Under the pieces are notes generated by a model, which saw only the letters and a list, made by a program, of their open reading frames with translations, searched no databases and was not told the DNA's origin. This document shows positions 11,835 to 29,998 of a stretch of 64,000 nucleotides of DNA, in pieces. Position 1 is the first letter of the stretch. Each line of letters starts with the position of its first letter. The stretch is from an uncultured beta proteobacterium (lineage in GTDB: Bacteria; Pseudomonadota; Gammaproteobacteria; Burkholderiales; Gallionellaceae): the NCBI GenBank assembly GCA_963828205.1, contig CAWHDU010000011.1:9134-73133 (forward strand). Direction: 5' to 3'. Both the position numbers and the translations under genes were made by a program.

Positions 11835-11863
11835 TTGACGCTTATTTCTATATCGAATAGCCT
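11835..11863 (+). promoter_or_regulatory. Candidate sigma70 promoter for the lipoprotein gene
   Basis: TTGACG-17 bp-TAGCCT in an AT-rich intergenic region. Confidence 0.45.
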
Positions 11864-11945
11864 AGAAACTATTAAATAGACGGGCTTGGGTAGGCAGGTT
11901 CGGATAGGTGGATAATGTCCCTGGTGTTTTGATAAGGAATGGCCT

Positions 11946-12347
11946 GTGAATTTTGTAAAGCGGTTGGGCGCGTTACTTCTGGTTTTCGGTTTGGTTGGAT
12001 GTGCGGGTACAGAGATAAAATCGAACACCGCACGTGATAGGCAGGAGGTTGTTGGAAAGCGGGCGCAGTTACGTTGGGATGCGCTTGTAAAGGGGGATTT
12101 GGCCGCGGCGTACGAATATCTGAGCCCGGGTACGCGCAGTATGGTTTCTCTTGATGTTTACAAGAATAAAATTCGCCCCGGCCTGTGGCAAAGAGCGCGT
12201 GTTGAATCGGTGTCGTGCGAAGTAGATCAGTGCGAAGTTAATTTGCTGGTTGAATACAGCTACCGCGAAATGAAGGCCGCTGAATCACAAGTCAAGGAAC
12301 TCTGGCTGTTTGACAGCGGCGACTGGTGGTACATTCCAAAAAAATAA
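11946..12347 (+). CDS. Putative lipoprotein of unknown function
   Basis: Basic N-terminus, hydrophobic stretch and lipobox LVGC; 133 aa; directly upstream of the surface-protein gene. Confidence 0.75.
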   Translation: MNFVKRLGALLLVFGLVGCAGTEIKSNTARDRQEVVGKRAQLRWDALVKGDLAAAYEYLSPGTRSMVSLDVYKNKIRPGLWQRARVESVSCEVDQCEVNLLVEYSYREMKAAESQVKELWLFDSGDWWYIPKK

Positions 12348-12394
12348 TTTTTCGTATTTGCAAGGCTGGGATCAAGGCGAGAAAGGACATGCGT

Positions 12395-12800
12395 AAAAAA
12401 TCGATTGTAAGTTGAAAGAAGTGTGTTATAAAATGCTAAAATGGCAATTTTATTGAGAGTATTTTATCGAGAGTATCAACTTGATTGCCTGCTTGAAGGG
12501 CAGAATGAATTTAGCTGCAAGGAGGGGTAACTGATGGTGCATTCCGAAAAAGTAATCTCGTATAACAGGCAAGGAGGGGGTATGCGAGCAAAAAATCGAT
12601 TGTAAGTTGAAAGAAGTATGTTATACAATGAAGCCGTAGTGATTTATGGAAAGTAGTGCCTTACCTTACCTTACCTGTTTGGAAAGCAGAACGAAATTTG
12701 GCTGCAAGGGGTGGTAAAAGAAGTGTGTTACAAAAATATAGGTTGTAGTCATTTATCGAGAGTAGTACCTTACCTAATTTGAAAAAGGAGTAAACAAAAG
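12395..12800 (+). promoter_or_regulatory. Triplicated promoter/leader with two sigma70-like promoters and a final RBS
   Basis: AAAAAATCGATTGTAAGTTGAAAGAAGT(G/A)TGTTATA(A/C)AATG at 12395 and 12590. TTGTAA-18-TAAAAT and TTGTAA-18-TACAAT. Partial third copy at ~12717. AAAGGAG before ATG 12801. Confidence 0.7.
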
Positions 12801-14321
12801 ATGAACGTTTTCAAGAAAAATTCTGTATATATGGCCGTTCTGGCTGGCTTGGGTGCGATTGGCGCTGCTGGTACCGCGAGTGCTGTCCACGTAAATCCTG
12901 ATGGCCTTGGGCAGGTGTTGATTTATCCGTACTATACCGTGCGCAGTGCTGCTACCCCCATCGCTTCCGGTCAGTACAATACCTATGTTTCCGTGACCAA
13001 TACCACCGCCTCTTCCAAGGCGGTCAAGGTGCGCTTTATCGAAGGGAAGCATAGCCGCGAAGTTCTTGACTTCAACTTGTTCCTGTCGCCCTACGACACG
13101 TGGGCGGGTGTAGTTCTTCCGGTTAATGCCACTGCCGCCAATGGCGCAAAAGTGGTTACATACGACAAATCCTGTACTTGGGGTAATGTCGCCGCTGCCG
13201 GTTCAGCCGGTGTTCCATTCTCCAACCTGGCTTACATCAACGGCACCGCCGGCAATAACGCCGACTGGGAATCGGGTTCGCTGGATCGTACCAATGAAGG
13301 CTACATCGAAATCATGGAAATGGGCCGGATTGACACTGGCGTAGCTTTGGGCGCGGCTCTGAACACGGCGATCACCCACGTTAGCGGCGTAGCCCCTTGC
13401 ACCTCGTCTGTGCTGAATGCTGCCGACGTGGCTGGTCTGACCGGCTATCTGGTTGCCGGCAATGGCGGCCTGATGGGTGGCGCAACTCTTATCAATACGG
13501 CTACCGGCGTGGATTACGCTTATGACGCGATCGCCATCGACAACTGGGATGCTACAGCGGCCGGTGTGGGTTCCGCTGCTTCCTCGCTGAACCCGAGTAT
13601 CGTGGGCGGCAGCGTCTTGGTCAGTAACGTGTTCAATGGCGGCGCGGCTGCGACCGCAACCTGGCTGACCAACCAGAATGCGGTGAGTGCGGCCATGACA
13701 CGCAATACCGTGATGAACGAGTATGTGATGGATTCCGGAACTGCCTCCGCTACGGACTGGGTGGTCACTTTCCCGACCAAGCGCTTCTACGTGAACACGG
13801 AAGCTTCCAGCAGCGCGCATACCGCCGCGCCGTTCCCGTCGGGTTCGGCTGCTAACCGTCTGTTCAACCAGAACTTCGGAACGGGTGGTTCGTGCGATCT
13901 TTTCAACTACTCCTTGCGCGACCGCGAAGAGCAGTTGGATGCTCCACCCGGCAGCCTCTTCTCGCCGGCAGCCGGCACTAGCCCGCAGTCGTTGTGCTGG
14001 GAAACTAACGTGGTCACATTCGCACGTGGTTCCTTTACTGCCGGCACTGCTACCCCGATTCTGGGTTCGACCAACAGCGTTGGAGTTACCGTTCCGGCAA
14101 GTTTCAGCAATGGCTGGATGAGTATGACCTGGGCCGCCAGCGTAACGGTGAACTCGCCATCGATCACTCCTGCAGCCGGACTGGTTCACTACGGCCTGCC
14201 GGTGGTTGGCTTCATGGTGCAGGACTTCATCAACAGCACGATCGTAACCGGAACTGGTGCAGCAGCCGGCGCCGCGCACGGTGGTCAGTTTGTGCATAAG
14301 CATACCCGTGACATCCGTTAA
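12801..14321 (+). CDS. Major secreted cell-surface protein, probable S-layer subunit
   Basis: Sec signal ending TASA. Mature N-terminus VHVNPDGLGQVLIYPYYTV and C-terminal YGLPVVGF, which I recognise from proteobacterial 'cell surface protein' annotations. Ala/Gly/Thr/Ser-rich; codon use (gct, ggt, ttc, aac) suggests high expression. Confidence 0.7.
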   Translation: MNVFKKNSVYMAVLAGLGAIGAAGTASAVHVNPDGLGQVLIYPYYTVRSAATPIASGQYNTYVSVTNTTASSKAVKVRFIEGKHSREVLDFNLFLSPYDTWAGVVLPVNATAANGAKVVTYDKSCTWGNVAAAGSAGVPFSNLAYINGTAGNNADWESGSLDRTNEGYIEIMEMGRIDTGVALGAALNTAITHVSGVAPCTSSVLNAADVAGLTGYLVAGNGGLMGGATLINTATGVDYAYDAIAIDNWDATAAGVGSAASSLNPSIVGGSVLVSNVFNGGAAATATWLTNQNAVSAAMTRNTVMNEYVMDSGTASATDWVVTFPTKRFYVNTEASSSAHTAAPFPSGSAANRLFNQNFGTGGSCDLFNYSLRDREEQLDAPPGSLFSPAAGTSPQSLCWETNVVTFARGSFTAGTATPILGSTNSVGVTVPASFSNGWMSMTWAASVTVNSPSITPAAGLVHYGLPVVGFMVQDFINSTIVTGTGAAAGAAHGGQFVHKHTRDIR

Positions 14322-14341
14322 TAGCTGAAGTCATTGGTTTG

Positions 14342-14374
14342 AAAACGGGCGAGAGCGATCTCGCCCGTTTTTTT
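14342..14374 (+). terminator. Intrinsic terminator after the surface-protein gene
   Basis: AAAACGGGCGAGA-GCGA-TCTCGCCCGTTTT followed by a T-tract. Confidence 0.9.
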
Positions 14375-14494
14375 ATGGGCGAAACAGAATATGCTTTCTC
14401 GAGAGAAAATGACCGCTTGGGAAAATTGCAGGCGCACTTGCGGGCATACGCACATATACATAGCGACAGAAATCGTAGCGGGCGGTTCTCGGGG

Positions 14495-14981
14495 GTGGGG
14501 GAGGCCAGCGCGCAGCGACCGGAGCATACACAGCAGATGTGAGGATCGCGACAACGAAGTTGCGGTGCAGGCTCACACATTCACAGTAGTCGTCATTCCG
14601 GCGAAGGCCGGAATCCGGTTTATAAAATAACTCCGCGCAGCGGACAAAGCCGTGTACTGGATGCTGTCCCACTGCGTGGGTGTCTTGATAATTCAGTGAG
14701 GTAAACCCCCGGCTATGCCGGGGGACTCAGTTAGGTTTGACCGTTCCGGCAGTTATTAAAGAGCAACATAAAATTCAGCGGCATCATTCCCTCCCCCTTG
14801 CAGGGGGAGGGCTAGGGAGGGGGTAGAAACTAAGCATGGGCACAATCAAAATTTCTACCCCCATCCCAACCTTCCCCCTGCATGGGGGAAGGAGTAAAAA
14901 GCCCGCCGCCTTCAGGCGGCTCACGGTTTTATCGGCACCTTTGAGAGGCTCATCTAATAAGCCCCCGGCTATGCCGGGGGT
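14495..14981. repeat. Mosaic of several REP/MITE-like elements
   Basis: GTCATTCCGGCGAAGGCCGGAATCC (14592), paired CCCCCGGCTATGCCGGGGG hairpins (~14706 and ~14962), and an inverted pair of TCCCTCCCCCTTGCAGGGGGAGGG-type palindromes (14788-14893). Confidence 0.8.
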
Positions 14982-15123
14982 TAATTCCGCACATGCAGAT
15001 TTGAGCGGAAGATTGCCATCTATTTGAACTTTTTAGAGTGGCGGATGCCTATGCTGGTGAGTTAGAATGCGGGGTGGGCAAATGCAGGGCAGATGCAAAT
15101 AATTAAGCAAGGCAAGGACACAA

Positions 15124-17162
15124 ATGCTCAATGGCAAAAAAGCGGAAATAGCGGCGATATTATCGGGGATCATGTTTGCGCTGGCGAGCGGAGCTGCCGG
15201 TTCAATCACCTATACGTATCCTTTTCCGGCAAATTGCTCCGCAATCACTATTGCCCCATCAGGCGCGATCAGTTGCTCCCCCGGAACGCCTGTCAGATTC
15301 ACTTTTGCAGGTCCGATTTCCTGTTCGGGACTGGCGATTTCTGCGTCCGGCGCGGTCAGTTGCGCATTGGTGCCGGAAGGTTGCATGCTGGGCGCATCAT
15401 CCGCCACGCCCGCCCCGGGAGACACGATCACCCTCACGGCTTCGGGCTGCAAGCAAAGTCCGGCCAGCTATAGCTGGACGGGCAGTGGGATCGCCGTTGC
15501 CGATTCGAATACGGCTCAAAATACCACAAGCGTCACCATTCCTTCATCCGCATCCGCAGGCCCCTATCCATATTCGGTGATCGCCAGCAACGCAGCCGGC
15601 GCGGGTACGGTCGCCGGCACTACGGTCAGGGTCACGGTTCCGGGTTACATGGGCCTTTTGCCTATATCGCGAACCACACTACTCCGGGCACCTTGTCGGT
15701 GCTGGATACCACAACCAACCTTGTCTCCAAGATTGTGCCGGTTCGTGCCAACCCCGTCGGTGTGGCAGTTAATCCGACGGGAAGCAGGGTGTATGTCACG
15801 AACGCCACTGACAACTCCGTTTCGGTGATCGACACCGCCACCCACGAAATCATCCAGGTTAAAGACCCCCTGAATGCCAGCAGCACGCTCCCTTATATCG
15901 GCGTAGGCCTGGCTCCCTACGGCATTGCGGTCAACCCGTCAGGAACCGGCGTGTACGTGGCGAATAGCGCAAGCAACAGCGTTTCGGTGATCGATGCCTT
16001 GAATAATGCCGTAACCGCTTCACCCGTGCCTGTAGGGAATATGCCTTACGGTATTGCGGCACACCCGAGCAAGCCGAAAATATATGTGACCAACTACGGC
16101 GGAAACAGTGTTTCAGTGATCGATACGAGTAACAATACATTGCTTTACAACCAAGCCAACGGAGTGGCGGCGGGGAAATATTCGTTCAGCAAGCCATACG
16201 GTGTCGCGGTTGACCCGAAAGGGGATTATGTTTATGTGGCGAACGAGGGCAGCAACAGAGTTTCCGTGATCAAGGCCGATATCGATACCGTATTATTTGA
16301 AGTGCAGGTGGGAAGCAAGCCGCACGGTGTGGCGGTGAATCGGGATGGAAAGGTCTATGTTGTCAACAGCGCTGCCGGAATAACCGGTGAGCAAGGAACA
16401 GTATCGGTGATCGAGATTACCGATTTCGCCAATGGCCTCGCGCGCGTGACAACTCTGGATGGCCTGGGAGCGCTGCCCAATTTTATCGCTTTCAACCCGG
16501 CGGGCACGCTGGCGTACGTGACCAATTATCAGTCTAATAACATTTCCGCGTTCGATGTGGCCGCCGCCAACCTTGCGCCCTCCGCCGTGCCTGCCGGCGC
16601 CGGCCCTTACTCGTTCGGGCAGTTCGTGGGACCGGCCATCCGTTCGGCCACGGCGCAGGATTTTGTCACGGTCTACGAATTTTATCACGCCGGATTGAAT
16701 CACTATTTCCGCACTGCCAGCGCCGCAGAAGCCAGCGGCATCGATAGCGGTGCGGCTGGGCCTGGCTGGGTTCGCACGGGCGACAACTTTAAGGCCTATT
16801 CCGCTTCGGCCACTTCGGGCGGGGCTGTTTCCGTTTGCCGTTTTTACGGCTCGATGTCCCCTGGCCCCAACTCCCATTTTTATACAGCCAGCCAACAGGA
16901 ATGCGATGGCCTCAAGGCGCTCCAGCAAAATACGCCCGCCAGCGAAAAGCGCTGGAATTATGAAGGGCTGGCTTTCTCTATCAGCCTGCCGCCGGCCAGC
17001 GGATGCCCGGCAGGTTTTGCTCCCGTCTACCGGCTTTATAACAATGGATATAGCAAGGGCGAAGATTCAAATCACCGCTATACCACACTGCTGTACGAAT
17101 ACCAGAGGCTTATATCCGCCGGCTGGAGCGGGGAGAGCGTCGTGATGTGCTCTCCTTTATAA
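15124..17162 (+). CDS. Secreted protein: Cys-loop N-module, Ig-like domain, YVTN beta-propeller, C-terminal DUF5648-like domain (apparent -1 frameshift at ~15655)
   Basis: ORFs 15124-15828 and 15693-17162 join at ...GGGCCTTTTGCC, giving G-P-F-A-Y-I-A-N. Repeated 'VYVTN..SNSVSVID'. C-terminal 'VYEFYHAGLNHYFRTA...VCRFY...NSHFYTA...VYRLYNN...NHRYTT'. Confidence 0.82.
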
Positions 17163-17177
17163 ACAAGGGAACAGTAA

Positions 17178-19652
17178 ATGCATGCGAAAGCACTCGAAAT
17201 GTGCGGTTTAACGAATGCGCGGATTGCCGGGCTGATGCTGGGCATCGCAGCCGCCATGACAGGCGGGATGGCAAGCGCCTTTACTTTTGTTGACCCCTAT
17301 GGATCGCCCTGCGCAAACCTGGTGCTGTCGGCGCAAGGGCAGGTCAATTGCGACAACAGGCCGATACTGACCGGATGCACCGGACAGATATTCATCGATG
17401 CGCAGGGGGCCGTCAAATGCGCCAGCAGCGTCCCGTCTGCCGTGTCCAACGTAACGGCGGCTGCCGGTAATTCCCAGGCTACAGTCACCTTTACCGCTCC
17501 ATCCGATGGCGGTTCTGCCATCACTGGCTACACCGTCGCCTCCAGCCCGACGGGTGGCACTGACGCCAATGCCGGGTCGACGGCGCTGAGCCACACCATC
17601 ACCGGCCTGATCAACGGTACGGAGTACACTTTTACCGTCACTGCCGCCAACAGCGTCGGCACCAGCCAAGCTTCAATTGCCAGCAACCCGGTTACCCCGA
17701 AGAGCAGCCAGACCGTGAGTTTTGGCAACGCTCCGGCGATTGCCGCCGGCGGAACCGGCACTGTTTCGGCTACTGCCACCTCCGGCCTTGCAGTCAGTTT
17801 CAGCAGCAAGACGGCGGGTATATGCACTGTATCAGGAAGCACCGTTACCGGAGTGGCCGCGGGTACCTGCACCATAGCCGCAGATCAGCCGGGCAGCGCC
17901 AGCTACAGCGCGGCTGCCCAAGTGACGCAGAGCTTTGCCATCAGCAGCGGTGGCGGCGGCGGTCAGACCGGCGTGCCGGTCTGCTCCTTGGTCATCCTCC
18001 CGGGCTATGGCAACACAATCATGCTGGTGGCGAATTGCACTCCTGCGGCGACTTCCTACACATGGTCTTCCAACGCCGGATTCGCCGCCACGGATGCTTC
18101 CGGCAGTCTTGCTACGCCCGGCCCCGGAACCACGTATACCGTCATCGGTAATAACGTCTCCGGCAGCGGCGCCGTGGCCAGCGCGACTTACTCCGCCAGC
18201 GGTGGCGGCGGTGGCGGTGGCGGTGGTGGCCAGACTGGTGTGCCGGTCTGCTCCCTGGTCATCCTCCCGGGCTATGGCAACACAATCATGCTGGTGGCGA
18301 ATTGCGCTCCTGCGGCGACTTCCTACACATGGTCTTCCAATGCCGGATTCGCCGCCACGGATGCTTCCGGCAGTCTTGCTACGCCCAACACACAAACCAC
18401 GTATACCGTCATTGGTAACAACGCCTCCGGCAGCAGCACCTTGGCCAGCGTAACTTACGCGGTGGCGTCTGCGCCCGTTTGCACCCTGACAGCCGCACCG
18501 CCCTCAATCGCCCCGAATGGCACATCGATCCTGACGGCCAGTTGCAGCCCGTTGGCGTCCAGTTACGTCTGGACCGGCGGCGCCTGCGCCGGGAATACTA
18601 CCGCTACCTGTACCGTGACACTGGCGGCGGGCAGCCAGACTTATACCGTAGCCGGATCCAACTCAACGGGAGCCGGCAATACCGCCAGTGCCACGGTGAC
18701 GGTTGCGCCGCCTGCCTGCACCCTGACGGCCGCGCCGCCCTCAATCGCCCCGAATGGCACATCGACCCTGACGGCCAGTTGCAGCCCGGCGGCGGCCAGT
18801 TACGCCTGGACAGGCGGCACCTGTGCCGGGAATACTACCGCTACCTGCACCGTGACACTGGCGGCGGGCAGCCAGATTTATAACGTGACCGGGACCAACG
18901 CAGCGGGAGCCGGCAATACCGCCAGCGCCACGGTGACGGTTGCGCCGCCTGCCTGCACCCTGACAGCCGCGCCATCCACGATTGCCCCGAATACCTCATC
19001 GACCCTGACGGCCAGTTGCAGCCCGGTGGCGGCCAGTTACGCCTGAACCGGCGGCACCTGCGCCGGGAATACTGCCGCTTCCTGCACCGTGACACTGGCG
19101 GCGGGCAGCACAACTTATAGCGTGACCGGAACCAACGCAACGGGGGCCGGCAATACCGCCAGCGCCACGGTGACGGTGGTCGCGCCGGGGACATGCGTTC
19201 AGTCAAACGTCAATGAGGTGATCGATTGGGTTACCGCCAGAGGGCAAAATTTAAATAGAGCAATACCAAACGGCGGGTCATACTCTTTCCAGTTCAAGAC
19301 CCCCAGTTATAATTGGGCGGCGAACGTGATCAAGGAGCAGAGTATCCTTGGTAATCCGGTCATGACTTTCCTTCATATATCGCCCACCCAATGCGATTTT
19401 ACCTATCCGAACTATAGTGCCTGGGACGGGTGCGGGACGTCCGGTGCGGTTGTTTCATTGAATTACATAGTCGAAGCAGTCGATTCGCATACCTTCGGTT
19501 CTTGCAGCCTGAGGCCGGATACGTGGTATTACGTCAATATTCGCAACGAAGATGCCGGATTCGATGCGACGGCGGCTTCGCGGTGGTCCAATGGGGGGCC
19601 GGATACCTGCGCGGTCGGTACGAGTTGCGGACTGCTTTTCCAGATACATTAA
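17178..19652 (+). CDS. Secreted repeat protein: Cys-loop N-module, FN3 domain, Ig-like repeats, Cys-containing C-terminal domain (in-frame TGA at 19044-19046)
   Basis: ORFs 17178-19046 and 19089-19652 share a frame. The stop replaces the Trp codon seen in sister repeats (SY.WTGG). FN3 'VTFTAPSDGGSAITGYTV...GLINGTEYTFTVTAANSVG'. Confidence 0.82.
17973..19190 (+). repeat. Intragenic tandem repeats: 2 x 267 bp (89 aa) then 3 x 237 bp (79 aa)
   Basis: Near-identical DNA units starting at 17973/18240 and at ~18481/18718/18955. Confidence 0.9.
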
Positions 19653-19777
19653 TTTGCATCGGGCGCAGGGCGCGCAGAGCAATTTATTTTCGATGCGCGG
19701 GTGGATGGATTCTTTTTCTGGTTTGAACACCGAACTGGTAATACCGCGGGCTTTACAGAATTTTTTAAGGATTACTA

Positions 19778-20710
19778 ATGAGCATTAAGAAATTGTTATG
19801 TGCATCGGCCATGTTGATTGTTTCGACCATTGCGGCGGCAAAGGAGGCGGCTCCGCAAGCCGGCGGCGGCAAGGATGAATCCTCCGGGAATGTTGTTCTG
19901 GTCAGCAGCGCCCGCGCAGCCGTAACCAGGGCGGATTTCGACACCGAGGTCGAGAAAGTGCCGGAGCAGGATCGCTTCGAGTTTCTGGCGAGCCGCGAGC
20001 GGATCGGGAAAGTCCTGGAGAGCATTCTGGTGCGAAAAACCCTGGCCGTCGAGGCGCTGGAATTGGGGTTGGATAAATTGCCCAGAAACATCAACAGGCT
20101 GAACGCGGCACGCGAACAAGTGCTTGCGACAGAAAGAATCCAGGCCATGGATCAGGGTAAAAAGGCGCCGGATTTTGAACTGCGGGCTAAGGAAATATAC
20201 CGGTCGTACCCCGATAAGTACACCGTAAAACCAACGGTGAAAGCATCGCATATCCTGATCGGTTTCAAGGATCGCAGCAAGGAGGAAGCGTTGAAACAGG
20301 CTCAGGAGGTATATGCCTTGGCCAAGAGCGGCAGTGATTTTGGAGAATTGGCGGAAAAGTATTCGAGCGACAAGAACGCTCCAAAGGGGGACTTGGGTCA
20401 TTTCTCCGCAGATATGATGGTCAAGCCTTTTTCCGATGCGGCTTTTGCGATGAGGCCGGGCGAAATCGGCGGCCCCGTCGAAACAAAATTTGGCTTTCAC
20501 GTAATCAAGGTGGCCGAAGCAAAGCCGGGTTTCAAGCAGGATTATGATGCGGTAAAGGCAAGCATCATCGAGGAACTGAAAACCGAATACTCTGCGGGGC
20601 TGAAAACAAACCATCTGATCAATATCCGCACGGACAAGTCCATCAAGGTCAACGAGGAGGAGATATTGAAAATCAAGACCACGCTCCCTCCTGTCGAAGC
20701 CAAGAAATAA
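19778..20710 (+). CDS. Exported parvulin (PpiC-type) peptidyl-prolyl isomerase, SurA/PrsA/EpsD-like
   Basis: Signal peptide; 'VKASHILI...DFGELAEKYSSD...KGDLG.F...MVKPFSDAAF..GEI.GPVETKFGFHVIKV'. Confidence 0.92.
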   Translation: MSIKKLLCASAMLIVSTIAAAKEAAPQAGGGKDESSGNVVLVSSARAAVTRADFDTEVEKVPEQDRFEFLASRERIGKVLESILVRKTLAVEALELGLDKLPRNINRLNAAREQVLATERIQAMDQGKKAPDFELRAKEIYRSYPDKYTVKPTVKASHILIGFKDRSKEEALKQAQEVYALAKSGSDFGELAEKYSSDKNAPKGDLGHFSADMMVKPFSDAAFAMRPGEIGGPVETKFGFHVIKVAEAKPGFKQDYDAVKASIIEELKTEYSAGLKTNHLINIRTDKSIKVNEEEILKIKTTLPPVEAKK

Positions 20711-20727
20711 GGTTGCAGGCAGGCTTG

Positions 20728-21516
20728 ATGTTATTTGCCGAAGCGTGGGGCTATCGCTGGTTGTTTGCAAATTTCCTGCGCAGGGAAATAAGCGGCCGGT
20801 ATGTGGGCAGCATCAGCGGCGTGTTGTGGGTGCTGCTGAACCCGCTGGCGTTGCTGGCGATTTACGGTTTTGTCTTTGCCGTGGTGTTTCGTGTCAATGT
20901 GCCGGAGCTGCAAGGGCGGGACTTTATAGAATTTGTCGCACTCGGGCTGTGGCCGTGGCTGGCGTTCCAGGAAGGGGTGCAGCGCGCAGCGATGTCGGTT
21001 CAATCGGCAGCGGGGCTGATCAAAAAAGTCGCCTTCCCGCATGAACTGCTGGCCTATGCTGCAGTAGCGTCCACCTACATCATTCATATGATTGGTTTTG
21101 TGTTTGTCCTGCTGGTCATGAAACTGGGCGGGAAGGATATCCATTTTTCCGCACTTCCCGTGGCGATGGTGTTCATTTTTTTCCAGGTGCTGTTCACCAG
21201 CGGTTTGGCGATGCTGTTCTCGGCGCTGCAGGTGTTCGTGCGCGACGTAGAGCATTTCCTGGCACCCCTGCTCATGATCTGGTTTTACGCAACGCCGGTG
21301 CTCTATCCGGCCAGCCTTGTACCAGAGCAAATTCAGAGCGTCATGGCATTGAACCCGATGGCTGCCTTTATTGACGGCACGCGCGATGCCATGCTTTATG
21401 GCGCGGACGGCTTGAGCATCAATAGCGCGATTCTGGCCGCTTTCGGTGTGGCGGTATTTGTGGCCGGACGCATCGTTTTCAGGCGGCTGTCGCCGCATTT
21501 CGAGGATTTCCTCTAG
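20728..21516 (+). CDS. wzm: ABC-2 polysaccharide exporter permease (Wzm-type)
   Basis: 'REISGRYVGSISGVLWVLLNPL', 'LIKKVAFP', 'RDVEH...WFYATPVLYP', 'NPMA'. Confidence 0.92.
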   Translation: MLFAEAWGYRWLFANFLRREISGRYVGSISGVLWVLLNPLALLAIYGFVFAVVFRVNVPELQGRDFIEFVALGLWPWLAFQEGVQRAAMSVQSAAGLIKKVAFPHELLAYAAVASTYIIHMIGFVFVLLVMKLGGKDIHFSALPVAMVFIFFQVLFTSGLAMLFSALQVFVRDVEHFLAPLLMIWFYATPVLYPASLVPEQIQSVMALNPMAAFIDGTRDAMLYGADGLSINSAILAAFGVAVFVAGRIVFRRLSPHFEDFL

Positions 21517-21698
21517 CGGGCAAACGACATGAAGCGCATTGACGGTCCGGCTTCTCGTTTCACGCGGTTGACTGATAGTTTCCTGCCTGGAATCCATATG
21601 ATCCAGAAAACCGCTATTGACAGCTTGTATTTTACGATAGCCAGGTTGACGATCGACTCTTGCGTTTTCGGTTTCAAACCTGCGAATAAGAGGAATTA

Positions 21699-23924
21699 AT
21701 GAGCGATGCACAGATGTTCGAGCAGGCTGCCCGTTTCTATAGCATGGGTAAGCTCGGGGAAGCCGAAGAGGTTTTTCGCAGGCTGGTTACCAAGCAGCCA
21801 ATCAATGCTGCGGCATGGTATTACCTCGCTGTAATTGAGCACCAGAAAGGAAGTCTTGCCGCCGCTCTGGAGAATATTGAACAGGCAATCAAGGCGCAAC
21901 CCCGGCAACCCAAATATTACGTGCTCAAGGGTAATGTGTTGCAGGATCAGGAAATGCTCGTTGACGCGGAGGCAAGTTTTCTTGCCGCGTTAAAAATCGA
22001 CCCGAATTATGCGCAGGCCTATAATAATCTCGGCATCGTATTGCGGGATCAGAAAAAATCGGTTGATGCGATCGAGGCTTTTCGGCAGGCGATTGAACGT
22101 GATCCAAAATATATCAAGGCCTACAACAATCTGGGGTCGGAGTTGCAGGCCGCCGGACGCCTGGAAGAGGCCGCCGAATATTATCGCCGTGCCGTCGAAT
22201 TAAAGCCGGATTATTTGTTAGCCATGTACAACCTCGCGATTGTAAGCTACCGGCTCGGACGCTATCCCGATGCCGATCTGTGGTTTCGCAACGCCCTGAA
22301 ATTGAAACCGGATCATGTTTCATCCAGCCTTGCCTACGGGCGCATGCTATTGGAGCAGTACAGGCTGAACGATGCGGAATTATGCCTGCAGAAGGCTGTA
22401 CACCTTGTGCCGCACGATGTTGCCGCAAATAATCTTCTGGCTGAAGTAATGGCCGCAGAAGGGAAAGCCGAGCAGGCGCGGGCAGTTTATCAACGGGGGA
22501 TGGAGCTCGATCCGGCGAGCCTGAGAGCCGCACTCGGAGCAGCGCTCACTTTACCTCAGGTATACAAGAACAGTGCCCAGGTGAACGCGGCGCGCGAACA
22601 TTTCGAATCCGGTTTGAATTCGCTGCTCGATAATATTGAAAAATATGGCCGGAACCCCGCAGAAAGAATTCTCGAGGAAATCATGTGGAACAATTTTAAT
22701 CTTGCCTATCAGGGGCGGGATGACAAGGAGCTGCAAAAAAAATATTCCACTTTCATCGAATCGCTCCTGATGCTCGCGGCGCCTCAATACATGAACCCGC
22801 TGCCAAAAAAGGATATTTCCGGAAGGCGGTTGCGAATCGGGTTCTTAAGCGGTTATTTTTATACCTGCACAGCGGGAATGTACTTTAATTCCTGGGTAAC
22901 ACGTCTGGATAAGAGCCGTTTCGAGACGTTTGTTTATTACACAAATACCATAAAGGACGGCATAACTGCGACCGTGTCGAACGCAGCCGATCATTTCAAG
23001 CAGTTAACCAAACCCCCTCTGGCGACTGCCGGCGAGGTGTGGGCAGATGAGCTTGACATACTTGTTTATCCCGAAGTCGGCATGAATGGAAAAACCTGCG
23101 TATTATCGTCGCTGCGCCTGGCACCGGTGCAGTGCGCTGGTTGGGGCCATCCGGTGACGACCGGCCATGTCAACATGGACTACTATTTTTCCAGCGCTCT
23201 GATGGAACCGGATCAAGCGCAGAGCCATTACACGGAGAAATTGCAGCTATTACCCGGCATTGGCACGGCCTATCCAAAAGTCAATTTGCCATCGCCTGCT
23301 TTGAGATCGGATTTTTCGCTGCCGGAAAACAAAACCCTGTATCTGTGTCCGCAATCGCTGTTCAAAATTCATCCGGACAACGACGAGCTTTTTCTGAGGG
23401 TTCTTGAAGGGGACGAGAATGGAGTGCTGATATTTTTCAGCGGGCAGCATGATGTGAGCTCCAACGCTTATATCAGCCGGCTTTCCGGCTTATTCGATGC
23501 GCGCGGGATGGAGAAAGCGGGGCGCGTGAAAATTCTACCCAAGATTGACCACGAGAATTACCTCAGGGTGAACATGCTATGCGATGTTATGCTTGACACG
23601 CTTTACTGGTCTGGCGGGAACACTTCGCTGGATGCGCTGGCCTGCGGTTTGCCTATTGTCACGCTGCCCGGCCAGTTCATGCGCGGACGGCAAAGTTACG
23701 GGATGCTGATGGCCATGGGGATTCCGGAAATGGTCGCCCGCGATGAGAATGATTTTGTGCGGATCGCGCTTTTACTGGGAAAAAATCCTGATTACCGGAA
23801 AGAAATATCGGCGCGCATCCGGAATGCAAACGGGCAAATGTTCGAGGATGGGGCGCCTGTCAAGGCGCTGGAGAATTATTTTATCGAGATTGCCTCATCC
23901 TCCGGGGCAGCAGCCGGGGCATGA
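21699..23924 (+). CDS. TPR-containing GT41 (O-GlcNAc transferase / HMW1C-like) glycosyltransferase
   Basis: N-terminal TPRs; C-terminal 'LDILVYPEVGM', 'GWGHPVTTG..DYYFS', 'DVMLDTLYWSGGNTSLDALACGLPIVTLPG'. Confidence 0.88.
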   Translation: MSDAQMFEQAARFYSMGKLGEAEEVFRRLVTKQPINAAAWYYLAVIEHQKGSLAAALENIEQAIKAQPRQPKYYVLKGNVLQDQEMLVDAEASFLAALKIDPNYAQAYNNLGIVLRDQKKSVDAIEAFRQAIERDPKYIKAYNNLGSELQAAGRLEEAAEYYRRAVELKPDYLLAMYNLAIVSYRLGRYPDADLWFRNALKLKPDHVSSSLAYGRMLLEQYRLNDAELCLQKAVHLVPHDVAANNLLAEVMAAEGKAEQARAVYQRGMELDPASLRAALGAALTLPQVYKNSAQVNAAREHFESGLNSLLDNIEKYGRNPAERILEEIMWNNFNLAYQGRDDKELQKKYSTFIESLLMLAAPQYMNPLPKKDISGRRLRIGFLSGYFYTCTAGMYFNSWVTRLDKSRFETFVYYTNTIKDGITATVSNAADHFKQLTKPPLATAGEVWADELDILVYPEVGMNGKTCVLSSLRLAPVQCAGWGHPVTTGHVNMDYYFSSALMEPDQAQSHYTEKLQLLPGIGTAYPKVNLPSPALRSDFSLPENKTLYLCPQSLFKIHPDNDELFLRVLEGDENGVLIFFSGQHDVSSNAYISRLSGLFDARGMEKAGRVKILPKIDHENYLRVNMLCDVMLDTLYWSGGNTSLDALACGLPIVTLPGQFMRGRQSYGMLMAMGIPEMVARDENDFVRIALLLGKNPDYRKEISARIRNANGQMFEDGAPVKALENYFIEIASSSGAAAGA

Positions 23925-25180
23925 CTTTGAACTTGCAAACACCAGGTGTCATGAATGAGTTATTGATCAAGCTGGATAATGTCGGGAAGGATTACCCGCT
24001 TACCTCCGCCGCAGGTGACAGGCTGAGGACGGTATGGTCGTTATTGTCAAGTCAAGGTGATATCCCGCACTACAGGGCATTGCAGGGCATCAGTTTCGAA
24101 ATGTGCCGCGGCGAATCGATCGGCTTGATCGGCGAGAATGGGGCGGGGAAATCGACGCTGCTCAAAATTATCGCCGGGGTGGTTAAGCCCTCCGAGGGCA
24201 AAATGCTTGTGCATGGGCGTATTGGCGCGCTTCTGGAGTTGGGAAGCGGCTTTCATCCGGAATACACCGGGCGGGAGAATATTTTTCTTGCCGCCGCGCT
24301 GATGGGGCTCTCTAAATCCGGTATCGCGGAAAAACTGGAATCAATAATCGAGTTTGCCGATATCGGGAGCCACATCGACCAGCCGATCAAGCACTATTCT
24401 TCCGGCATGGTGGTGCGGCTTGGCTTTGCGGTTGCGACGGCAATGCGGCCGGATATCCTTATCACGGATGAAGTGCTGGCGGTTGGCGATGAATCATTCC
24501 AGAAAAAATGTATTCGATGGATCGAGGAATATCTATCCGGCGGCGGCACGCTGCTATTGTGTTCGCACAGCATGTACCATATCCAGACGCTTTGCCAGAA
24601 GGCATTGTGGATACACGAGGGGCGCCTCCGGATGCACGGCAACAGTTTTGACGTGACACGCGAGTATCTGACGTATCACGAAGAAAAAAATAATCGCGCC
24701 CTGAGTTGCGAGCAGGTTGTGCAGCAGCAGGGCGGCATCTACCAAGTCCGCAAGCTTTGGTTGGAGGACGACGCTGGGGAACCGGCAGGTACGGCACCGA
24801 TGGGCGGCGTTCTGCGCCTTTGCGGCGTTGTGCATTCGCCTGACGGCAGGCCGCCGGTGATCCTGTTCGGCGTTGCCCGGGCTGATGGCACCTCGATTTA
24901 CGGCACCCACTCCAACGAGACAGCTTACCGTCCCAACCAGATCGGATCGTCAGAGTTCGGGTTTTGCGTGCGTCTTCCCAACCTCCAGTTGTTGCCGGGC
25001 AAATATATCATCCGTGCCCACGCCATGGATCCGGAGGGCTTGCGCCTGTTTGATACGGTAATCACCTCTGTGCTAATTACCGGACAGACTCGCGACTACT
25101 GTTTGTGCCGGCTTGAGCATGAATGGCTACCTGCAAGAGAAGATTTTGCCGCCATGGGGAATAATGAAATTGTGCGATGA
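23921..25180 (+). CDS. wzt: Polysaccharide ABC exporter ATPase with C-terminal Wzt_C domain
   Basis: Walker A GENGAGKST, signature YSSGMVVRLGF, Walker B ITDEVLAVGD, plus a C-terminal beta-sandwich extension. Confidence 0.93.
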   Translation: MTLNLQTPGVMNELLIKLDNVGKDYPLTSAAGDRLRTVWSLLSSQGDIPHYRALQGISFEMCRGESIGLIGENGAGKSTLLKIIAGVVKPSEGKMLVHGRIGALLELGSGFHPEYTGRENIFLAAALMGLSKSGIAEKLESIIEFADIGSHIDQPIKHYSSGMVVRLGFAVATAMRPDILITDEVLAVGDESFQKKCIRWIEEYLSGGGTLLLCSHSMYHIQTLCQKALWIHEGRLRMHGNSFDVTREYLTYHEEKNNRALSCEQVVQQQGGIYQVRKLWLEDDAGEPAGTAPMGGVLRLCGVVHSPDGRPPVILFGVARADGTSIYGTHSNETAYRPNQIGSSEFGFCVRLPNLQLLPGKYIIRAHAMDPEGLRLFDTVITSVLITGQTRDYCLCRLEHEWLPAREDFAAMGNNEIVR

Positions 25181-26411
25181 AGAATTGAAGCGCGCGGCCC
25201 CTGCGGGATATTCTGCAACGCTTAATGTAGCCGGCCTGGTATCCGAATACCGGGTTGGGCAATTGATGGCGATAAACTTGGATTTCGAGATTGATGGCAT
25301 CTGTCTCTTCAATCCGGTTATCCGCATCTTTATCCGCCGTTCCGGCACTGAGAAGCATCTGGCCGGTGCCGATACTCACCAGGGCGGGCTGTATTATCCC
25401 TGGCTTCCCAGGGGCGCTTACCGTTTCACGTTTTGCTGGCCTGTAAGCCTGCCCGCCGATAGATATGAACTGTGCGCGGCTTGGGGAACCGTGGAGGAAA
25501 TCAGGCTGCCCGACGTGATTTGGCCATTCTGTATTGAGGGAGAGCGCGCGGCCCATGCACCGGAAAACGGAGCTTGGGCGCCGGATGAGCCTACCCGTTT
25601 GCGCATAGAGGGCTTATCCTGGCAGAAGGGAATGACAAACTGGTTTCACCGCCATTTTTGCCATGCCGCCGGAGTGATTGGCGAATCTTTTCTTGCACGA
25701 TCGCCATTGTTGCATGGGCGCATTCTGGATATTGGCGCAGGTGAAGGCATTACCGATCTTGGCCTGTTTCTGCGCTATTGTCCGCGGGAATTGGTGGCGA
25801 TGGACATCGTCGATTATCTCAGGTTTTTGCCACGTGTTGCCCGGGAAAACGATCTTCCTCTGGAGGCGTTGCCGGAAGGATTTACATTTATTCAAGGCAG
25901 TTGCAACAGCATACCCTATGACGATGCCAGTTTTGATATCGTGATCTCCTGGGGGTCGCTGGAACATATTGCGGGCGGGTACCGGCGTACGCTTGATGAG
26001 GTGTGGCGGGTTCTGAAGCCGGGCGGACTGTTTTTCGTCAACCCCGGACTTTATTATTCATCCAACGGCAGCCATCTGGGGGAGTTCAGCGACGAACCCC
26101 ACCTTCACCTGAAGATTTCCGAGGACAAGCTGCATGATCTGGTCATGAACACTCCGCCCCGTATCATTGACCGCGCTGGATTTGATGTAAGCAATGCCGA
26201 TTACTGGAGGTTCTACAAGGAGTTGAACCGGATTCGGGTGGCCGGCTTCGAGGCGGAGTTGAAGGCGTACGGGTACACTGTTGTGCGCGCCGCGATCCGC
26301 ACCAGCGATATGGTGGAATATAGTCCGGAATTGCAATCTTACGGTATTTTGGACCTGGCGGTCGAAGATGCATTTTTCACCTTGCAAAAACCGGCAGAAA
26401 TTCCTGAATGA
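25164..26411 (+). CDS. Class I SAM-dependent methyltransferase with an N-terminal Wzt_C-like domain
   Basis: 'ILDIGAGEG', 'YDDASFDIVISWGSLEHI', 'RVLKPGGLF'. Start overlaps the wzt 3' end. Confidence 0.85.
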   Translation: MKLCDEELKRAAPAGYSATLNVAGLVSEYRVGQLMAINLDFEIDGICLFNPVIRIFIRRSGTEKHLAGADTHQGGLYYPWLPRGAYRFTFCWPVSLPADRYELCAAWGTVEEIRLPDVIWPFCIEGERAAHAPENGAWAPDEPTRLRIEGLSWQKGMTNWFHRHFCHAAGVIGESFLARSPLLHGRILDIGAGEGITDLGLFLRYCPRELVAMDIVDYLRFLPRVARENDLPLEALPEGFTFIQGSCNSIPYDDASFDIVISWGSLEHIAGGYRRTLDEVWRVLKPGGLFFVNPGLYYSSNGSHLGEFSDEPHLHLKISEDKLHDLVMNTPPRIIDRAGFDVSNADYWRFYKELNRIRVAGFEAELKAYGYTVVRAAIRTSDMVEYSPELQSYGILDLAVEDAFFTLQKPAEIPE

Positions 26412-26426
26412 AGGAGGGGGTACCAT

Positions 26427-27391
26427 TCACTTTTCAGGCAACTCGTTCTTGTTGGCGCTCCAGTAGGTAATCGGGCTCCAGAACGACGGCCTTTCATTGC
26501 CGACCGGGCCGATGTCGCAATTGCCGCAGACCGGCATTGCCGCACGGTTATTCTGCATCATTTGCTTGAATTGATTACGCGCCTCGCCGTTTTGAATTTC
26601 GCTGTACTTCTGCGTCAAGAGGTTGCCGAATACGCCAGCTCGTGGATGCATGCAACAGGGAACCACAGTGCCATCGGCATCAACGTATAGCTGGTTGATT
26701 TCGCCGAACCATGCATTCGAATGGAAGTCCTTCGCATCGGCGAGGAACATGCAATGGCCGGGCGGCGCGATGACGGTACGACCGGTCATGTTCTCTTGCG
26801 CCTGCGGCAGCGGCATCCAGCGCCTGAATTCCGGGAGCCAGCCGCGAGGACGCAAGACAGACTCCCATCGGCGCGCATCTTCCCGAGTGCGGATGATGGT
26901 TCTTGTCAAGAGTTGCGTTCCCGGGGCCACCGGTCACGCAAATAGGCAGCGCGTTCCAGGAAATCGATCAGCCTTTTCCATTTTGATGGCGGCCGCAAGC
27001 GCTCGTAGTCTTCCGGTGTGCCGTCGCCGTCGCAACTGACGAACAGCTTGGTAACGACTTCCTGCTTGAGCGTTTCTTCAAAGTCATCCCAGTAGACCCA
27101 TTGCGCGTTGGTGCTGATCTCGACTATCGATGCTTTCCATTGTTGCTCGGGAATCTGCGCAACGATAGATGAGAGTTGCTTGTGCAACAGCGGTTCGCCG
27201 TAATTGAACAAACGTAGCGAGTGGATGCGCTCGACGTCAATATTGCTGAGACAGCGTGCAAAATCTTCCACCGCGATGCGGCTTACTTTGGATGCCAGCA
27301 TCGAGTTCGGGCAGCCGACACACCGCAACTGGCAGCCATGAACGATATCAAAATGAACTGAGTAAAGGTGCTTCGGAAGAATAGTTGTCAT
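26427..27391 (-). CDS. Radical SAM protein with SPASM/twitch domain (apparent -1 frameshift at ~26925)
   Basis: CQLRCVGC (CxxxCxxC), 'NYGEPLLH', 'ISTN'. The downstream frame has 'VDADGTVVPCC...FGNL...CGNC'. One G restores R-W-A-P-G. Confidence 0.85.
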
Positions 27392-27667
27392 TGAATGAGG
27401 CAAGTCAATTTGGAGCGCGAACAAGGGAAAAGCATACGAATCAAACCGCGTTTATTATAACATGCGGCTAATTCCGAAGTCGCTTTCTGGCCTTCCTGAG
27501 GCAGAGGGTTAATGTAAGAACACGCACCATATTTTCCGATAAAAATTACCTCAATAGTGAGGCAGCGATCCCGATCCCCGGTATCTTTTCGTTATGATGC
27601 AATGCGTGACACCTGACAGAATTACAAGCTACCATTTGCAACTGAAACCCATCCCCTTCTATTTCTC

Positions 27668-29998
27668 ATGACCGCTACCGACCCGCAAACCTTGCCTCTC
27701 GACGACGCGTTGAAACAAGCCATCGCCCATCACCAGGCAGGGCGATTGCAAGAGGCGGAACGGCTTTACCGCGCGGTTTTGCAAGCGCAGCCAGATCAGC
27801 AGGACGCGAACCACAATCTGGGGGTGTTGGCGGTGCAGGTAAAGCAGCCTGCCGCCAGTTTGCCTTATTTCAAGGCTGCATTAGAGGGTAACCCGAATCA
27901 GGAGCAATACTGGCTGAGTTACATTGATGCGTTGACGCAGACAGGGCAAACTGAAGCCGCTCAGTCGGTGTTGGCGCAAGGCCGTCAGGCGGGGTTGAGC
28001 GGCAAGGCAGTTGAAGCGCTGGCAATGCGTTTAGATGGTGGCGCCCGGGCATTACGGCGAGCAAATGCAGATCTTCAGCACACCTTCAAGGGATCGTCAC
28101 CTAATTCGTCGGCAGCACCACACAAGGAAAAATACTCCAGCCCTCAAGATATGATAGATATGCTGGAAGCGCTATTCAGCCGGGGGCGTTATAGCGAAAT
28201 GGGAACGATTGCCCAGAAAATGACGGTGCGGTTTCCCGATCACGGGGTTGGCTGGAAAGTGTTGGGTGCGGTGTTCAAGCAGATGGGGCGTAATGCGGAA
28301 GCGCTAGTTGCGATGCAAAAAGCGGCAATGCTGTCGCCGGATGACGTTGAGGCACATTACAACCTGGGGAATGCGCTCCGTGAGCTCGACCGGCTGGAAG
28401 AGGCCGAAGCCAGCTACCGGCGGGCGCTGCAGATAAAGCAGGATGACGCTGAGGCGCATTGTAATCTGGGCGTTACCCTCATGGGTCTTGGCCGGTTGGG
28501 CGATGCAGAAGCCAGTTACCGGCGTGCGCTACAGATAAAGCAGGATTACGCTGAGGCGCATTACAACATGGGCGTCATTCTCCAGGAGCTTGGCCGGTTA
28601 GGCGGTGCAGAAGCCAGTTACCGGCGTGCGTTACAAATAAAGCCGGATTACGCGGAGGCGCATAATAACCTGGGCGTTACCCTCATGAATCTCGACCGGT
28701 TTGACGACGCCAGAGCCAGTTACCGGCGCGCGTTGCAGGTCAAGCCGGATTATTCCGAAGCGCATAGCAACCTGCTTTTCGTTTGCAATTTCATGCCCAA
28801 TCAATCCCCGGCGTCGATGTTGGCGGAAGCGTTGCGTTATGGCGAACTGGTGGCGCGGCTAGCACATCCGTATAAGGCATGGAGCAACGTTCCCGACCCC
28901 GACCGGTGCTTGCGCGTGGGGCTGGTTTCAGGAGATATGCGCACACACCCGGTTGGCTATTTCCTGGAAGGCATATTGGCGGAGCTCTCCAAACTGGCAA
29001 CTGGACGGCTGGAGTTTCATGCCTATTCCAACCATCCATATACAGACGCAGTAACCGGGCGGATCAAGACCTGCTGCCGCAACTGGCATTCGGCGGCGGC
29101 GCTTTCAGATGAAGCGCTTGCCCGGCGGATACATGACGACGGTATTGATATCCTGCTCGATCTATCCGGCCATACCGCTCACAACCGGCTGCCGGTGTTT
29201 GCCTGGAAGCCTGCCCCTATCCAGGCTGCATGGCTCGGCTATTTTGCCACAACCGGCGTGGCGGCCATGGACTATCTCATCGCCGACCCATGGACGCTGC
29301 CGGAAGCCGAAGAAATACATTTCACCGAAAAAATCTTGAGGTTGCACGAAACCCGGCTATGCTTTACCCCGCCGGATGTGGAGGTGAAAATTGCGCCTCT
29401 TCCCGCGCTGGCTAATGGCAATATCACCTTCGGCTGTTTCAATAACTTGGGCAAGATGAATGATGCCGTGGTGGCGCTGTGGGTGCGGGTGCTTGCATCC
29501 ATACCGGGCAGCCGCTTGTTCCTTAAAGCCAAACAGCTTAATGATGCTGCGACGCGACAAGGCATCGTCGAGCGTTTCGCGGCACAAGGAGTCTGCGCGG
29601 ACAGGCTGATTCTGGAAGGCTCCGAGCCCAGAGAGAAGTACCTGGCCGCTTATCAGCGCGTGGATATCGCTCTCGACCCATTCCCCTATACGGGTGGCAC
29701 CACAAGCGTCGAAAGCTTGTGGATGGGTGTGCCGGTGCTGACTTTGTCGGGGGAGAGTTTCCTGTCCCGCCAGGGTGTCGGAATCCTGATGAATGCCGGC
29801 CTGCCGGAATGGATCGCAGCCGGCGCCGATGACTATGTGGCACGTGCGGTATTGCATGCCGGTGATTTGCAGCGTTTGGCGATGCTGCGCAAGGGGTTGC
29901 GACAACAAGTGCTGGCATCACCGATTTTCGATGCGCCACGTTTTGCCAGGAATTTTGAAGCTGCCCTGCGCGGCATGTGGCGGAAGTGGTGTGACTGA
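27668..29998 (+). CDS. TPR-containing GT41 glycosyltransferase (SPINDLY/OGT-like)
   Basis: TPR array; 'LRVGLVSGDMRTHPVGYF', 'IDILLDLSGHT', 'WLGYFATTG', 'DIALDPFPYTGGTTSVESLWMGVPV'. Confidence 0.92.
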   Translation: MTATDPQTLPLDDALKQAIAHHQAGRLQEAERLYRAVLQAQPDQQDANHNLGVLAVQVKQPAASLPYFKAALEGNPNQEQYWLSYIDALTQTGQTEAAQSVLAQGRQAGLSGKAVEALAMRLDGGARALRRANADLQHTFKGSSPNSSAAPHKEKYSSPQDMIDMLEALFSRGRYSEMGTIAQKMTVRFPDHGVGWKVLGAVFKQMGRNAEALVAMQKAAMLSPDDVEAHYNLGNALRELDRLEEAEASYRRALQIKQDDAEAHCNLGVTLMGLGRLGDAEASYRRALQIKQDYAEAHYNMGVILQELGRLGGAEASYRRALQIKPDYAEAHNNLGVTLMNLDRFDDARASYRRALQVKPDYSEAHSNLLFVCNFMPNQSPASMLAEALRYGELVARLAHPYKAWSNVPDPDRCLRVGLVSGDMRTHPVGYFLEGILAELSKLATGRLEFHAYSNHPYTDAVTGRIKTCCRNWHSAAALSDEALARRIHDDGIDILLDLSGHTAHNRLPVFAWKPAPIQAAWLGYFATTGVAAMDYLIADPWTLPEAEEIHFTEKILRLHETRLCFTPPDVEVKIAPLPALANGNITFGCFNNLGKMNDAVVALWVRVLASIPGSRLFLKAKQLNDAATRQGIVERFAAQGVCADRLILEGSEPREKYLAAYQRVDIALDPFPYTGGTTSVESLWMGVPVLTLSGESFLSRQGVGILMNAGLPEWIAAGADDYVARAVLHAGDLQRLAMLRKGLRQQVLASPIFDAPRFARNFEAALRGMWRKWCD

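Follow-up and report, generated by a model that had tools for sequence, protein, structure and literature searches.

A candidate NpdA-family S-layer gene block with linked polysaccharide-export and GT41 genes in a Gallionellaceae genome

We analysed a 64-kb stretch of contig CAWHDU010000011.1 (hereafter the window) from an uncultured betaproteobacterium of the family Gallionellaceae, in which a strain-specific block of genes, with rfbC as its first gene and a glycosyltransferase gene of family GT41 as its last, appears to encode much of a surface-layer (S-layer) system. Coordinates are window positions, on the forward strand unless noted otherwise, and gene calls come from the listing of open reading frames (ORFs) together with Pfam and NCBIfam scans; by these, every gene named in the original prediction, an earlier interpretation of the same DNA made from its letters alone, is present where it had been placed. 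The central gene, npdA (12801..14321), codes for a protein of 506 aa with full-length homology to the NpdA family of S-layer subunits. Upstream of it lie rfbC, for dTDP-4-dehydrorhamnose 3,5-epimerase (10903..11448; PF00908, E 1e-76), and a gene for a small, outer-membrane-type, NTF2-like lipoprotein (11946..12347; lipobox LVGC). Downstream, beyond two genes for secreted accessory proteins, come genes for a periplasmic parvulin-type peptidyl-prolyl isomerase/chaperone with a signal peptide (19778..20710; PF13616, E 5e-28), the ATP-binding cassette (ABC)-2 permease of a polysaccharide exporter, Wzm (20713..21516; PF01061), a divergent GT41 enzyme with tetratricopeptide repeats (TPRs), here GT41a (21699..23924; PF13844, E 3e-35), the ABC ATPase Wzt (23921..25180; PF00005, E 6e-21), and an S-adenosylmethionine (SAM)-dependent methyltransferase (25113..26411, start codon uncertain; PF08241). 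A radical SAM gene on the opposite strand separates these from the second TPR-GT41 enzyme, GT41b, which is canonical and OGT/SPINDLY-like (27668..29998; PF13844-type domain and PDB matches).

The genes are closely packed in places: wzm starts 2 nt past the parvulin stop, and the stop codon of GT41a overlaps the wzt start (ATGA). Among the ORFs scanned inside the block, no glycosyltransferase was found besides the two GT41 enzymes. The N-terminal ~200 aa of the methyltransferase have no assigned domain; a Wzt_C-like domain in this protein, proposed in an earlier reader note, found no sequence-level support in the comparison of 25113-25712 with 24671-25177 (BLASTP E 0.4).

Judged by its sequence, the 506-aa protein is almost certainly an S-layer subunit of the NpdA family. 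In Delftia acidovorans and Paracidovorax citrulli, NpdA has been established as the S-layer subunit by gene deletion, proteomics, and electron microscopy, the last comprising cryo-electron microscopy in P. citrulli and thin-section transmission electron microscopy with immunogold labelling in Delftia (PMC3110197, PMC10765051). The window protein aligns by BLASTP over residues 4-503 with a Comamonadaceae NpdA at locus L112 (27% identity, E 4e-31), the first 100 residues of which are nearly equal to the P. citrulli NpdA printed in the supplement of PMC10765051. It is 42% identical over residues 1-505 to a protein of Candidatus Nitrotoga sp. 1052 (locus L035), which the same supplement lists as an NpdA orthologue. 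The NpdA profile matches with E 9.6e-50 in an order-level genome sample, and the motifs shared with the printed P. citrulli NpdA run along the whole chain and are the invariant columns of a 72-sequence alignment. The earlier claim that this protein is the subunit of a surface array is thus borne out by full-length homology to a proven S-layer subunit. More than 2,200 homologues occur in metagenomes, none of them named, and the carriers listed in PMC10765051 (Nitrotoga, Usitatibacter, and Lysobacter) recur among our NpdA matches.

The Sec signal peptide of the window protein ends in ASA and leaves an acidic mature chain (49.1 kDa, pI 5.2) in which Ala, Gly, Thr, Val, and Ser are abundant. Besides the full-length homology, it shares with the proteins of Delftia acidovorans Cs1-4 and Paracidovorax citrulli AAC00-1 the Sec signal peptide, a mature size of ~50 kDa, and the lack of a Pfam domain: No Pfam or NCBIfam model matched the 506-aa protein, and a PDB sequence search with the family profile was empty. 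An AlphaFold (AF2) model (pLDDT 87.9, pTM 0.89) was compared with known folds by Foldseek, as had been proposed earlier, and there was no match at E <= 0.001. The best matches were to galectin-type beta-sandwiches, and at E of about 0.02 these are far too weak for an inference of sugar binding, so the fold gave no assignment.

The five N-x-S/T sequons noted in the original prediction are present, but their count is that expected by chance (6.25 +/- 2.2 in shuffled sequences). In the 72-sequence alignment N67 is kept in 70 sequences and N478 in 29; N67 is the only conserved sequon, and the verified P. citrulli NpdA reads NTD at this site. The sequons were accordingly rejected as evidence for N-glycosylation, being at chance in number and not conserved, and we count them as evidence neither way.

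Six contigs with homologues of 45-69% identity share a common gene order. A scan of species-representative genomes gave 564 NpdA loci, the best 80 of which were kept and, with the contig loci, make up 85 places in other organisms; these were searched with the window proteins and with the type II secretion system (T2SS) proteins of this genome, and the counts that follow are among loci with enough flank. In the conserved order, the type II secretion operon comes first, followed by the genes for the small lipoprotein, NpdA, protein X (the second accessory secreted protein), and the parvulin, and then by wzm and wzt. The secretin gene gspD lies ~3 kb upstream of npdA at 60 of 67 loci, and a lipoprotein homologue ~0.5 kb upstream at 73 of 78. 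On the downstream side, an ORF with the C-terminal domain of X stands between npdA and the parvulin gene (38/56 loci), the parvulin gene follows npdA at 60 of 66 loci, and wzm or wzt does so at 56 of 64, with parvulin and wzm adjacent or nearly so in most. Beyond wzt the genes usually code for a methyltransferase, then a GT2/GT4 enzyme (~750 aa), and then a TPR-GT41 protein, an order seen at 13 loci or more; methyltransferase homologues stand after wzt in L042, L043, L111, and L112, and the wzm-GT41-wzt order of the window is seen also in L010-L012 and, by match offsets, in L042. Four Comamonadaceae-type loci (a clade label that rests on sequence likeness to the printed NpdA) hold gspD, lipoprotein, npdA, parvulin, wzm, wzt, and methyltransferase, and the linkage therefore holds in the clade with a proven S-layer.

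The linkage of the surface protein to parvulin, wzm, and wzt is thus conserved across dozens of species, and because of this the objection that homologues might lack such linkage, which the original prediction had raised against itself, fails. The same data bear on the idea that the glycan genes are an ordinary O-antigen cluster, co-transferred on an island and functionally unconnected with the S-layer. In its favour are the mobility of O-antigen clusters, which commonly occupy variable regions, and the position of the block at a synteny break. Against this, the order is kept from about 27% to 80% NpdA identity in beta- and gammaproteobacterial lineages, the parvulin-wzm adjacency seen in the window recurs, exactly or nearly, in most loci, and the Aeromonas system discussed below is an independent parallel, so that an accidental association seems to us very improbable. 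Some NpdA copies do stand apart: L077, L105 (Nitrotoga), and L101 are extra paralogues without linked genes, L014 is an extra paralogue inside another wzm/wzt cluster, and one soil betaproteobacterium has at least four copies.

The lipoprotein gave an AF2 model of pLDDT 86 with Foldseek matches to the NTF2-like structures 2jq5 (8.5e-5) and 3k7c, and with 9vxg also among the best matches. A role as T2SS pilotin of the PulS/AspS type was rejected on fold, there being no pilotin among the 50 best matches listed. We infer that the NTF2-like lipoprotein and X act in assembly.

No T2SS adjoins npdA in the window: The upstream genes are topA, rfbC, and the lipoprotein gene, and no gspD remnant was found upstream of the latter. 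The orthologous gsp operon, from gspE to gspD, lies on another contig of the genome (G000:C3:1059542-1070156), and its secretin shares 81% identity with the one linked to NpdA in L010. This second locus (G000:C3:1059542-1077992) continues past the gsp operon with a convergent double TPR-GT41 gene (1326 aa), a GT2/GT4 enzyme (756 aa), and a coiled-coil methyltransferase (485 aa). The last two are 40-51% identical to genes that follow wzt in other species, and the GT41 is 40-51% identical to the post-wzt GT41 of many loci and 25-36% identical in the remaining ones. Because the C3 genes match post-wzt genes elsewhere, the system is split and does hold a conventional glycosyltransferase. The earlier statement that it has no conventional polymerising glycosyltransferase is therefore right for the block and wrong for the system as a whole, given the GT2/GT4 enzyme of the C3 locus. 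NpdA variants with displaced or reduced gsp clusters are listed in PMC10765051. Elsewhere on contig C3, the stretch G000:C3:1040000-1056000 (L030) has an asparagine synthase, several GT4 enzymes, a heparinase II/III-like protein, and a GDP-mannose dehydratase. Another wzm, together with an ORF that matches Wzt_C more strongly, is found at a distance of 45-50 kb (C3:1018538 and C3:1025068).

Within the order, NpdA has matches in 24 of 401 sampled genomes, from 17 of 176 genera, and was found in 0 of 36 same-genus genomes and 0 of 3 same-genus genomes of the order sample. Best matches to the S-layer secretin among 40 same-genus genomes reach no more than 29-36% identity, and those to the GT2/GT4 enzyme are partial and weak. 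Neither half was thus found in the congeners searched, and both are therefore strain-specific. Synteny with three congeners ends at the topA end, with no rfbC after topA there; in two congeners, the region ahead of the OYE gene is free of block genes, and GT41b has no counterpart beside the OYE gene in congeners. A simple insertion between topA and the OYE gene was rejected, as the two are far apart in congeners and block genes are missing from both flanks; the block lies at a point of rearrangement. The observations fit a reading of the block and the C3 locus as two halves of one horizontally acquired NpdA-type S-layer system. Beyond the block, a 541-aa ORF without a Pfam match (31265-32890, reverse strand) has a counterpart of 75% identity beside the OYE gene of one congener; because of that conserved position we place it outside the S-layer block.

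The two secreted repeat proteins and the radical SAM protein had been listed among the components of the locus. Their genes are present, but comparison with intact homologues shows that all three are disrupted. The first codes for a secreted YVTN/NHL beta-propeller protein with a C-terminal DUF5648 (15124..17162; Pfam and NCBIfam) and is frameshifted near 15642-15654, the 740-aa homologue of L010 aligning in two frames; it is accessory and confined to the closest clade (5/66 loci). Gene X (17178..19652) codes for a secreted Fn3/repeat protein whose C-terminal ~150 aa form a conserved domain, and it has an in-frame TGA at 19044-19046, at a Trp position of its repeat unit. The radical SAM/SPASM gene (26427..27424, reverse strand) is matched by PF04055 and PF13186 on two overlapping ORFs and is frameshifted near 26906-26930. 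It is found in 4 of 58 loci, its N- and C-terminal matches adjoining (~0.5 kb, same strand) after wzt in L035, L040, L042, and L095. Because their genes are broken, the propeller, X, and radical SAM products are probably not made in this strain. As translated from 15202-15363 and 17280-17420, both accessory secreted proteins begin with paired short Cys-x12-13-Cys loops.

By analogy with known systems, we consider it reasonably probable that the glycan exported by Wzm/Wzt is a lipopolysaccharide (LPS) O-chain that tethers the NpdA lattice non-covalently. Tandem promoters with long leaders would give high npdA transcription, and the NpdA precursor would cross the inner membrane via Sec, be assisted in its folding by the parvulin in the periplasm, and leave through the dedicated T2SS. 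The GT2/GT4 polymerase, the methyltransferases, and the GT41-TPR proteins would build a capped undecaprenyl-linked polysaccharide, probably with rhamnose, for export by Wzm/Wzt and ligation to lipid A-core, and the NpdA lattice would then bind the O-chain without a covalent bond. Precedents come from several sides. The A-layer of Aeromonas salmonicida is tethered by LPS, and wzm and wzt enclose its sps T2SS genes together with vapA (PMC4483657). The norm in ABC-dependent O-antigen synthesis is an O-chain that is capped by a coiled-coil terminator and recognised through a carbohydrate-binding module of Wzt (PMC11231755). For the Delftia S-layer protein, an NpdA orthologue, reassembly needs LPS (Engelhardt, cited in PMC3110197).

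Several points weigh against LPS tethering. No WaaL-type ligase was found in either locus, and the three Wzy_C proteins of the genome are far away. There is a second wzm/wzt pair on contig C3, and the npdA-linked exporter is therefore not needed to explain LPS as such. The wzt gene with a Wzt_C domain that had been predicted is confirmed as to wzt, but the domain match is weak and below the Pfam cut-off (PF14524, 21.1 bits against 30.4; 23.5 bits when the genome was searched). To our knowledge all characterised GT41 enzymes modify proteins, not lipid-linked glycans, and SPINDLY and OGT are close relatives of GT41b. Finally, given three broken genes in the block, the system may be in decay.

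The same gene set could instead make an S-layer glycoprotein, if the exported, methyl-capped glycan were moved en bloc in the periplasm onto Ser, Thr, or Tyr residues of NpdA by an unlinked O-oligosaccharyltransferase. Such en-bloc transfer is the mode of the S-layer glycosylation (slg) clusters of Geobacillus and Paenibacillus, and we take the window's wzm/wzt, methyltransferase, rhamnose gene, and glycosyltransferases to resemble the slg gene set; the genome does have three Wzy_C-domain proteins, and the tight operon linkage of subunit and exporter fits glycosylation as well as anchoring. In contrast to the Firmicutes-type clusters, however, the ORFs scanned in the block and in the second locus include neither an O-oligosaccharyltransferase of WsaB/PglL type (Wzy_C) nor an STT3-type gene. 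The NpdA papers never mention glycosylation (PMC3110197, PMC10765051), and the LPS dependence of Delftia reassembly points to a non-covalent contact with LPS. Attachment of the exported glycan to NpdA is accordingly quite improbable in our judgement.

The part played by the GT41 enzymes is a separate question. Their domains score 121.8 and 159 bits against a Pfam cut-off of 25, with TPRs ahead of them, and the PDB matches are OGT, SPINDLY, 5djs, and XcOGT. Like human OGT, Arabidopsis SPINDLY, Thermobaculum OGT, and Xanthomonas XcOGT, both thus have a TPR array and a GT-B domain, and GT41b aligns over the whole catalytic region (SPINDLY 7y4i, E 1e-120, residues 281-775; bacterial OGT 5djs, 3.5e-96). 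GT41b keeps the His motif (SGDMRTHPVG). GT41a, which matches SPINDLY and OGT in the PDB, keeps the Lys of K842 type in OGT (LFKIHP; LYKIDP in OGT) and has Cys/Thr (SGYFYTCTAG) in place of the OGT His motif (GNHPTS). In contrast to OGT and SPINDLY, the context of the block enzymes is a polysaccharide-export operon. The genome (3.2 Mb) holds about six GT41 loci, so these enzymes are not unique to the S-layer system; one of these loci, at G000:C3:415203-416288, has an internal TAG and may be another broken gene. Even so, GT41 genes lie within 10 kb of npdA at 27 of 58 loci, a lower bound since many loci end at the 10-kb flank, and this share of almost half is far above chance.

One use for such enzymes would be in the cytoplasm, where NpdA, X, or some other client could receive single sugars from them ahead of Sec export, in the manner of HMW1C acting on HMW1, or where they could modify a cytoplasmic component of the export machinery; this could coexist with anchoring. 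The closeness of GT41b to SPINDLY and bacterial OGT, with its His motif intact, is in favour of protein glycosylation, and so are the TPR arrays, which serve in OGT as client-binding modules, the association with npdA, given that this genome has only about six GT41 loci, and the double GT41 that abuts the S-layer T2SS. Yet GT41 is not universal, being missing from L111 and L112 within the range covered; GT41a lacks the His of the OGT motif, and the sequons are at chance level. The gene order also argues otherwise, with GT41a wedged between wzm and wzt by a stop/start overlap and the post-wzt GT41 forming one fixed set with a GT2/GT4 polymerase and a methyltransferase that resembles a chain terminator; both arrangements point to a glycan pathway. 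Cytoplasmic glycosylation of a protein client is, on this evidence, on the unlikely side. The company of a terminator-like methyltransferase and a polymerase-like enzyme suggests a place for the GT41 enzymes in the glycan pathway, most likely in or on its assembly complex, although the protein acceptors of the characterised GT41 enzymes argue to the contrary.

We know of no GT41-TPR protein that is part of an ABC-dependent O-antigen pathway. A wider proposal, which we make only tentatively, is that GT41 enzymes are regular parts of a widespread Gram-negative S-layer system and either build or prime the lipid-linked polysaccharide that Wzm/Wzt export or O-glycosylate the subunit or X in the cytoplasm. 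In the former case they would be the first GT41 members to build or prime a lipid-linked polysaccharide; in the latter, O-glycosylation before export would be a new route to an S-layer glycoprotein.

The original prediction knew of no characterised pathway with this combination of genes, a statement that the literature does not support: NpdA and its T2SS are published (PMC3110197, PMC10765051), and the Aeromonas salmonicida A-layer genes are flanked by the wzm and wzt of an O-antigen cluster (PMC4483657). As in the published NpdA systems, the gsp operon is a dedicated one, with a secretin orthologous to NpdA-linked secretins, but here it is on another contig, and identity to the Comamonadaceae proteins is only about 27%. 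The A-layer (wb(salmo) cluster, PMC4483657) likewise has a subunit of ~49 kDa, a dedicated T2SS, interleaving with wzm/wzt, and an LPS tether. Its order is different (wzm, sps genes with vapA, wzt), its cluster is reported without GT41, parvulin, or NTF2-like lipoprotein, and the likeness is one of gene organisation, with no homology of VapA to NpdA claimed. With the capped ABC-dependent O-antigen systems (Escherichia coli O9a WbdA/WbdD; Klebsiella O3, O7, and O12; PMC11231755) the system shares Wzm/Wzt with a Wzt extended at its C terminus, a coiled-coil methyltransferase (that of the C3 locus), and a multi-module GT2/GT4 enzyme; the Wzt_C match, however, is below cut-off here, and no kinase module was seen.

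What is already known, then, is the subunit family, its T2SS link, and the presence of Aeromonas S-layer genes within an ABC-2 O-antigen cluster. PMC3110197 and PMC10765051 describe only the upstream gsp genes and make no mention of downstream parvulin, X, wzm/wzt, methyltransferase, GT2/GT4, or GT41; it is this conserved downstream module, together with the upstream lipoprotein, that goes beyond these papers. Specific to the window are the two-locus split, the three broken accessory genes, the absence from the congeners searched, and a three-unit promoter-leader region conserved in a relative. The NpdA family of S-layer subunits was recognised only recently and is common among environmental Beta- and Gammaproteobacteria. 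Almost always the subunit is accompanied by a periplasmic folding helper, a lipoprotein of NTF2-like fold, one more secreted protein, and a complete pathway for the export of a capped polysaccharide. In this pathway lies a possible genetic basis for the LPS requirement of Delftia S-layer reassembly, and the linkage gives bacterial GT41 enzymes, few of which have an assigned role, a definite setting that lends itself to tests.

The region ahead of npdA (12395..12800) is made of tandem promoter-plus-leader units, recognised from repeat families and sigma-70-like sites, with units spaced 195 and 107 nt apart and long 5′ leaders that end in the ribosome-binding site GGAG. Full sites (TTGTAA-18-TAAAAT / TACAAT) lie at 12405-12434 and 12600-12629; of the triplicated promoter originally described, two units thus have full sigma-70-like sites, but the third is partial. 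The three-unit layout is kept in L012 (spacing 198 and 104 nt), and two units are present in L010. The strong terminator predicted after npdA is well supported, with a hairpin of -24.3 kcal/mol (z -4.75) at 14341..14375 that has a 14-bp stem, a 4-nt loop, and a 3′ arm running into a T run. Further upstream, an element ahead of the lipoprotein gene (11788..11872) is common to the window and L012 (86% identity over 85 nt), where it has the same position, and L012 is likewise without an adjacent T2SS; the element is probably the lipoprotein gene's own promoter region.

Against Rfam, the leader and intergenic regions yielded nothing beyond sub-threshold matches of microRNA models on a generic hairpin. 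The gap that separates npdA from the propeller gene contains, at 14700-14985, a 23-nt GC-rich palindrome (CCCCCGGCTATGCCGGGGG) in duplicate, with one copy on either side of a hairpin with 42-nt arms (14788-14893). The palindrome pair and hairpin resemble elements of the repetitive extragenic palindrome (REP) or miniature inverted-repeat transposable element (MITE) type, and in one relative the same npdA-propeller gap is occupied by an IS110 transposase.

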